A stretch of DNA of 64,000 nt. It comes from Escherichia coli. Lineage in GTDB: Bacteria; Pseudomonadota; Gammaproteobacteria; Enterobacterales; Enterobacteriaceae. The first letter of the stretch is position 1; each line of letters starts with the position of its first letter. Location of the stretch: assembly GCF_045037415.1 (NCBI RefSeq), contig NZ_CP173438.1; one strand, given 5' to 3'. The notes beneath the pieces were generated by a model, which saw only the letters and a program-made list of their open reading frames with translations, had not been told where the DNA came from and searched no databases. This document shows, piece by piece, positions 58,268 through 58,811 of the stretch. The position numbers were made by a program, and so were the translations under genes.

Positions 58268-58343
58268 CGTCGACTGTCACCCGAACAGATGGAGTATTTT
58301 CCCTATCAAACCAGCAAAGATAAAAATATAGAAAATAATTTTA

Positions 58344-58742
58344 ATGATGCCCAGACAGCCTGGCCCACCATCGTCAACGGGCATTGGCTGCGGTTGCGGC
58401 TCCGATAACGCTGGCGAAGGGGTGGACCAGGACTATAAGCAAGCGATGTACTGGTATCTGAAGGCTGCTGCTCAGGAAAGCGTCGGCGCTTACGTCAACA
58501 TCGGTTATATGTATAAACACGGACAAGGCGTTGAGAAAGATTATCAGGCCGCCTTTGAATAGTTTACGATAGCCGCTGAATGCAATGACGCCACAGCCTG
58601 GTATAACCTGGCCATTATGTATCACTACGGAGAAGGAAGACCTGTCGATCTCCGACAGGCTCTCGACTTGTATCGTAAAGTTCAGTCATCCGGAACCAGA
58701 GATGTCAGTCAAGAAATTCGTGAGATTGAAGATTTACTGTAG
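58344..58742 (+). pseudogene. Sel1-repeat gene remnant (ybeQ-like 3' end) with in-frame amber stop
   Basis: Sel1 repeats read through a TAG at 58560..58562 (..DYQAAFE*FTIAAECNDATAWYNLA..), where Sel1 repeats usually have W; upstream Sel1-like text is in another frame. Confidence 0.55.
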
Positions 58743-58811
58743 AGATAAAAACAAGGGCCGGGGAATTTCATTCGGCCCATATTCTCTTTATTGCTGTGCG
58801 AAATCAGACTA

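Follow-up and report, generated by a model that had tools for sequence, protein, structure and literature searches.

The analysed stretch of DNA (64,000 nucleotides, hereafter the window) is from Escherichia coli, runs in the orientation opposite to K-12 MG1655 and is 99.994% identical over 47 kb to EC958 (O25b:H4-ST131). On the basis of the list of open reading frames (ORFs) and the annotation of identical public genomes, it contains hscC (53727–55397, + strand), then djlC (55457–56907, − strand), which is the retained paralogue of djlB and is split in the window, and then ybeU (56904–57611, − strand). An intact ybeT (57713–58267, + strand) is the left neighbour of the interval studied here; its product, WP_001295868.1 in AVS0935, EC958 and SE15, is a Sel1-repeat protein of 184 amino acids with a signal- or lipobox-like N-terminus. 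The right neighbour is an intact ybeL (58812–59294, − strand), beyond which lies leuS (+ strand). With ybeT ending at 58267 and the oppositely oriented ybeL ending at 58812, the intervening sequence amounts to 544 bp (58268–58811), in agreement with the roughly 545 bp given in a preliminary description of this DNA. That description had also named ybeQ, ybeR and djlB as the occupants of this position in K-12, and the K-12 annotation indeed gives the order leuS, ybeL, ybeQ, ybeR, djlB, ybeT, ybeU, djlC and hscC. Elsewhere in the window, self-similar BLAST blocks were seen at 39100–39830, where a tRNA gene cluster with internal repeats (Gln, Met and Leu according to the EC958 annotation) forms an ordinary operon of the glnV/metU/leuW type.

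The preliminary description had proposed that the ybeR-djlB module was lost at this position and that ybeQ was degraded, and had suggested an alignment with K-12. A BLAST comparison of window positions 53001–60000 with the K-12 MG1655 region (NC_000913.3) supports the proposal: the interval is neither collinear nor intact relative to K-12 and shows one clean deletion. The alignment consists of two collinear blocks, window 53120–58404 with K-12 684000–678715 (97.1% identity) and window 58405–60000 with K-12 675907–674312 (98.4% identity), separated by a single gap of 2,807 bp that corresponds to NC_000913.3 675908–678714. At the junction (58404/58405), K-12 position 678715 in djlB is joined to position 675907 in ybeQ; the joint is blunt, with zero microhomology and no inserted bases. 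The missing segment comprises codons 1–213 of ybeQ, the ybeQ-ybeR intergenic region, the whole of ybeR and nucleotides 1–1300 of the 1428 nucleotides of djlB, while ybeT, ybeU, djlC and hscC are spared by the deletion.

The left part of the interval is a remnant of djlB. Window positions 58268–58404 are identical to K-12 at 137 of 137 nucleotides, and the last 128 nucleotides of djlB (58277–58404, − strand) are recognizable from a translation that matches the C-terminus of K-12 DjlB. The claim that djlB was lost therefore stands for most of the gene, which is deleted, but not for these last 128 nucleotides, which survive. The remnant consists of 41 codons plus a stop codon at 58277–58279 and encodes the C-terminal tail-anchor segment alone, with no J-domain, start codon or promoter; the N-terminal J-domain with its HPD motif, by which a DjlB protein would be recognized, is absent with the deletion of nucleotides 1–1300. 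K-12 djlB (b0646, formerly ybeS), which encodes a tail-anchored J-domain co-chaperone and presumed HscC partner, ends in the same final 128 nucleotides, convergent with ybeT and 9 nucleotides from the ybeT stop, whereas the window keeps 41 codons from which the J-domain has been deleted. The Prokaryotic Genome Annotation Pipeline (PGAP) calls this fragment (58277–58402, − strand) a "hypothetical protein, incomplete, missing N-terminus". Within the djlB remnant, an internal ATG opens an ORF of 35 codons (58277–58384, − strand) that covers only the DjlB transmembrane tail anchor; showing no expression signals, it is probably meaningless. The upstream Sel1-like text in another frame that had been reported earlier turned out to be this antisense djlB tail (58277–58404): inspection of all three frames placed the Sel1 coding sequence (58405–58742) in one frame only.

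The right part of the interval is the 3′ remnant of ybeQ (58405–58742, + strand), which begins 640 nucleotides into the K-12 gene and comprises codons 214–325 and the native stop. It matches K-12 ybeQ at 328 of 338 nucleotides (97.0%, 10 differences), and both position and sequence identify it as the orthologue, since it lies adjacent and convergent to ybeL and is collinear with K-12. When the internal TAG is read as tryptophan, the remnant yields three significant Pfam matches to the Sel1 repeat (PF08238; E = 2e-10, 8.2e-6 and 8.2e-5), which places it among the Sel1 repeat proteins. The amber codon itself (58560–58562, + strand) was located by codon comparison with K-12 ybeQ; a G>A change at 58561 converts TGG to TAG at W266 of K-12 YbeQ, confirming the earlier reading of Sel1 repeats broken by a tryptophan-to-stop change. 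The window copy shares with K-12 ybeQ (b0644) its place next to ybeL, its strand relation, its frame and the three Sel1 repeats, but differs from it in being a pseudogene that has no promoter, no start codon and no codons 1–213 and that carries W266* and K269I. A complete ybeQ frame, beginning at a start codon of its own and running for about 325 codons, is absent, codons 1–213 being gone and a TAG standing at codon 266. Amber recoding or read-through was considered and rejected, the ybeQ fragment having neither start codon nor promoter. PGAP calls it (58407–58742) ybeQ, a Sel1 family TPR-like repeat protein with "internal stop; incomplete; missing N-terminus". A comparison of the remnant with five other ybeQ alleles (K-12, FUJ80154, WP3-S18-ESBL-09, one ST69 strain and E. 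coli B) showed that four substitutions in the 338 nucleotides are private to the remnant among the six alleles, namely W266* (58561), K269I (58570) and synonymous changes at 58595 and 58668. These four changes are consistent with neutral drift, although they are too few to be tested statistically.

A survey of this junction across E. coli, also suggested in the preliminary description, was carried out on 5,426 complete RefSeq genomes. At least 80% of window 57700–59300 was present in 567 genomes, and a 151-nt probe spanning the junction was found in one piece in 565, so that the endpoints of the deletion are identical in all of these. The exact 41-mer around the TAG and the lineage-specific djlC allele were each also found in 565 of the 5,426 genomes, the three sets of 565 being compared by count; no surveyed genome showed the TAG without the deletion or the deletion without the TAG. 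Among the matches sampled, other genomes differed from the TAG 41-mer at two or more positions. The K-12-type 2,807-bp segment was kept (at least 80% of it) in 3,715 genomes, the whole hscC-ybeQ island was absent from 963 (e.g., 2022H048 and Nissle 1917), and about 180 showed other arrangements, such as IS insertions and other rearrangements. Of the complete genomes, about 68% have an intact island, about 10% a half-deleted one and about 18% none.

Both EC958 and SE15 carry the deletion, and their YbeT, YbeU, DjlC and HscC proteins have identical accessions; we take EC958 to belong to ST131 clade C and SE15 to ST131 clade A. EC958, AVS0935 and UID2309220013 show 100% conservation of the interval sequence; in the last of these, the left flank (4.7 kb) contains 16 mismatches (0.36%), but the interval and its TAG are unchanged. 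The breakpoint is identical in the carriers and is linked to a flanking djlC allele, as for a deletion fixed in a lineage. From these sequence comparisons we infer that one deletion event, no later than the base of ST131, may have been inherited clonally. In another carrier, razor3 (NZ_CP176051.1, 3458827–3461680), an IS3-family element, ISEc52, is inserted in the ybeT-ybeL stretch, so that the match there spans 2,854 bp versus 1,601 bp and the dead interval is eroded further.

The same feature is present in the public annotation. PGAP marks two pseudogenes at this position in AVS0935, EC958, SE15 and UID2309220013, and the pairs in EC958 (EC958_RS29575/RS30425) and SE15 (ECSF_RS26225/RS26855) have the same sequence as the window. 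Between the window and EC958 there is no difference within the interval; elsewhere they differ by a SNP and by two indels of one base each. In the literature searched, no paper was found that describes this deletion, either for ybeQ, ybeR and djlB or for ST131; what was found concerns the general biology of HscC, DjlB and DjlC. The interval is known through its public pseudogene annotation and is a case of ordinary gene decay. Annotators should mark it as a pair of pseudogene fragments and call neither a new ORF nor recoding there.

The differences from EC958 over the 47 kb are three in all, a SNP at 28995 and indels at about 45003 and about 55657/55658. The latter affects djlC (− strand), in which one C is missing relative to EC958 and AVS0935 (GGTCTC to GGTTC). 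The resulting frameshift, 59 codons before the end of the gene, splits djlC into ORFs of 424 amino acids (55633–56907) and 61 amino acids (55457–55642, the tail anchor) and so parts the J-protein body from its tail or membrane anchor. Among the 565 complete genomes that share this djlC allele, not one has the single-nucleotide deletion. The earlier statement that ybeU and djlC were kept is therefore correct for the lineage, but this genome, in which djlC carries the private change, may be an exception. The other indel is an extra T at about 45003 in corC/ybeX (+ strand), a conserved Mg/Co transport gene, where CCGGTCTCG becomes CCGGTTCTCG (window 44973–45020) and the +1 frameshift yields ORFs 44473–45018 and 44978–45352; one of the 5,426 genomes, Esc28 (NZ_OZ369436.1), shares it. 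Both indels are either private mutations or assembly errors. If the djlC indel is real, HscC in this strain would be left without an intact, anchored J-protein.

HscC is a specialised Hsp70 whose ATPase is stimulated by DjlC, and DjlB, which is 50% identical to DjlC, is assumed to stimulate it as well; both are tail-anchored inner-membrane J-proteins of HscC (PMC8215388). K-12 lacking hscC, or lacking djlB and djlC together, is sensitive to Cd2+ (PMC8215388). Judged from gene content, the island appears to consist of two paralogous modules, each with a Sel1 protein, a DUF1266 protein and a J-protein, flanking hscC, of which ST131 would keep one. Its possible role as an anti-phage defence system was dropped, as PADLOC gave nothing meaningful: searches of HscC, DjlC, YbeU, YbeT, YbeQ, YbeR and DjlB against PADLOC-DB v2 returned no significant match to a defence family, and no family at all for five of them. 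YbeT and YbeQ gave weak, sub-threshold matches to PtuA (E = 1.8e-3 and 1.2e-4, respectively) with no passing stretch.

The island takes other forms in other genomes. In the island-less state, seen in 2022H048 (L004, 7958–8000), the sequence equivalent to window 53644–58810 is replaced by a 43-bp spacer between the rihA and ybeL stops, which bears a GCCGGATG...CATCCGGC hairpin. Since the island is replaced by this spacer in 963 genomes, it is a discrete, sharply bordered accessory module. In E. coli B95.deltaA (NZ_CP085842.1; L009, 3912–7207), a frameshifted djlB/djlC hybrid adjoins ybeR, and ybeT and ybeU are lost. E. coli B thus resembles the window in that the same hscC-ybeQ island has lost one module and ybeQ has an internal stop; however, the event is an independent one, in which ybeT and ybeU rather than ybeR were lost, and ybeQ is full-length with its stop at codon 171, not 266. 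The decay in E. coli B and the 963 island-less genomes together show the island to be dispensable and prone to decay.

The reading we favour, with a probability of about 95%, is that the interval has no function and is the scar of a single non-homologous deletion in which an ancestor of the ST131 lineage lost 2,807 bp. One blunt, microhomology-free event in that ancestor would have taken ybeR entirely, nucleotides 1–1300 of djlB, and the promoter region of ybeQ along with the 5′ two-thirds of that gene. It would have left two fragments that lack their 5′ ends and lie tail to head, namely 128 nucleotides of djlB (− strand) and 338 nucleotides of ybeQ (+ strand). The ybeQ fragment would have drifted after the deletion, or been hit just before it, acquiring the W266 amber, K269I and the two synonymous changes, and the lineage may then have been left with YbeT-YbeU-DjlC as the sole partner module of HscC. 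That sequence was deleted, and that the site is not ancestrally empty, follows from the truncated ends of djlB and ybeQ, which stay in the K-12 register. It is scarcely conceivable that the short interval is instead ancestral and that K-12-type genomes gained ybeQ-ybeR-djlB by duplication or insertion. The paralogy of ybeR-djlB with ybeU-djlC (about 66% nucleotide identity) does point to an old duplication, and the 963 genomes without the island might seem to favour this view, but an insertion cannot create remnants such as a djlB tail identical at 137 of 137 positions and ybeQ codons 214–325 that are 97% identical, and the true empty site has a different form, namely the rihA stop, the 43-bp hairpin and the ybeL stop. 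Explaining the gap as an assembly artefact of one genome, with collapsed Sel1 repeats or paralogous modules, is equally hard to credit. The two single-base indels of the window that are absent from close relatives do suggest imperfect sequence quality; however, 565 complete genomes, EC958 and SE15 among them, were assembled independently and have the same junction, the paralogues are merely about 66% identical, and the junction lies outside the paralogous sequence. A deletion brought about by recombination between repeats (the Sel1 repeats of ybeT and ybeQ, or the djlB/djlC or ybeR/ybeU pairs) or by an IS element is a little less far-fetched but still very unlikely. The djlB/djlC fusion of E. 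coli B, with its loss of ybeT and ybeU, is such a paralogue-driven event, and IS elements do land in the region elsewhere (ISEc52 in razor3; IS1 and IS5 in others), but here the endpoints fall in the antisense djlB tail and in mid-ybeQ with zero shared bases, and the junction showed no microhomology, IS end, target duplication or foreign sequence.

The ORF list contains a chimeric frame of 72 codons (58344–58562, + strand), which joins the antisense djlB tail to the ybeQ frame up to the TAG and was judged spurious; the sequence upstream of it contains no Shine-Dalgarno-like motif, and PGAP does not call it in the identical genomes examined. Promoter-like sites in the interval are no commoner than in shuffled sequences, the counts from a terminator scan do not exceed those in shuffles, and Rfam covariance models gave no match over 58100–58950 up to E = 1. 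The sole plausible terminator signal lies in the convergent gap between the ybeQ remnant and ybeL, where a GC-rich hairpin is followed by a T-rich run (58755–58778, + strand), with a stem of 8 bp, a centroid energy of −14.7 kcal/mol and a z-score of only −1.8. This hairpin is a probable terminator and would end read-through from ybeT; the scar is then probably carried merely as a passive 3′ extension of the ybeT transcript, to 58755–58778 at most. We consider it very improbable that the remnant is functional, whether as the 72-residue chimera, as a 35-residue DjlB-tail mini-protein, through amber read-through, or as a 3′UTR or sRNA of ybeT. The existence of ORFs, the 100% conservation in EC958, AVS0935 and UID2309220013 and the terminator-like hairpin downstream might speak for function. 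However, the carriers share a very recent ancestor, which accounts for the conservation, the Shine-Dalgarno sequence, the excess of promoter-like sites and the Rfam match are all lacking, and, as drift predicts, one of the private changes is a nonsense mutation and another a non-conservative substitution. There is perhaps a marginally better, though still slim, chance that the scar acts as a long regulatory 3′UTR of ybeT, or that loss of the module is an adaptive, lineage-defining rewiring of HscC in pandemic ST131; the adaptive version takes as its premise that the B2 relatives of ST131 mostly lack the whole island.

On the favoured reading, a deletion scar without function, the interval provides genomes of the ST131 type, such as SE15 and EC958, with a clean structural marker specific to the lineage and is otherwise a matter of bookkeeping. 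Its wider bearing is on the poorly understood hscC island, which is dispensable and has been decaying repeatedly in E. coli.
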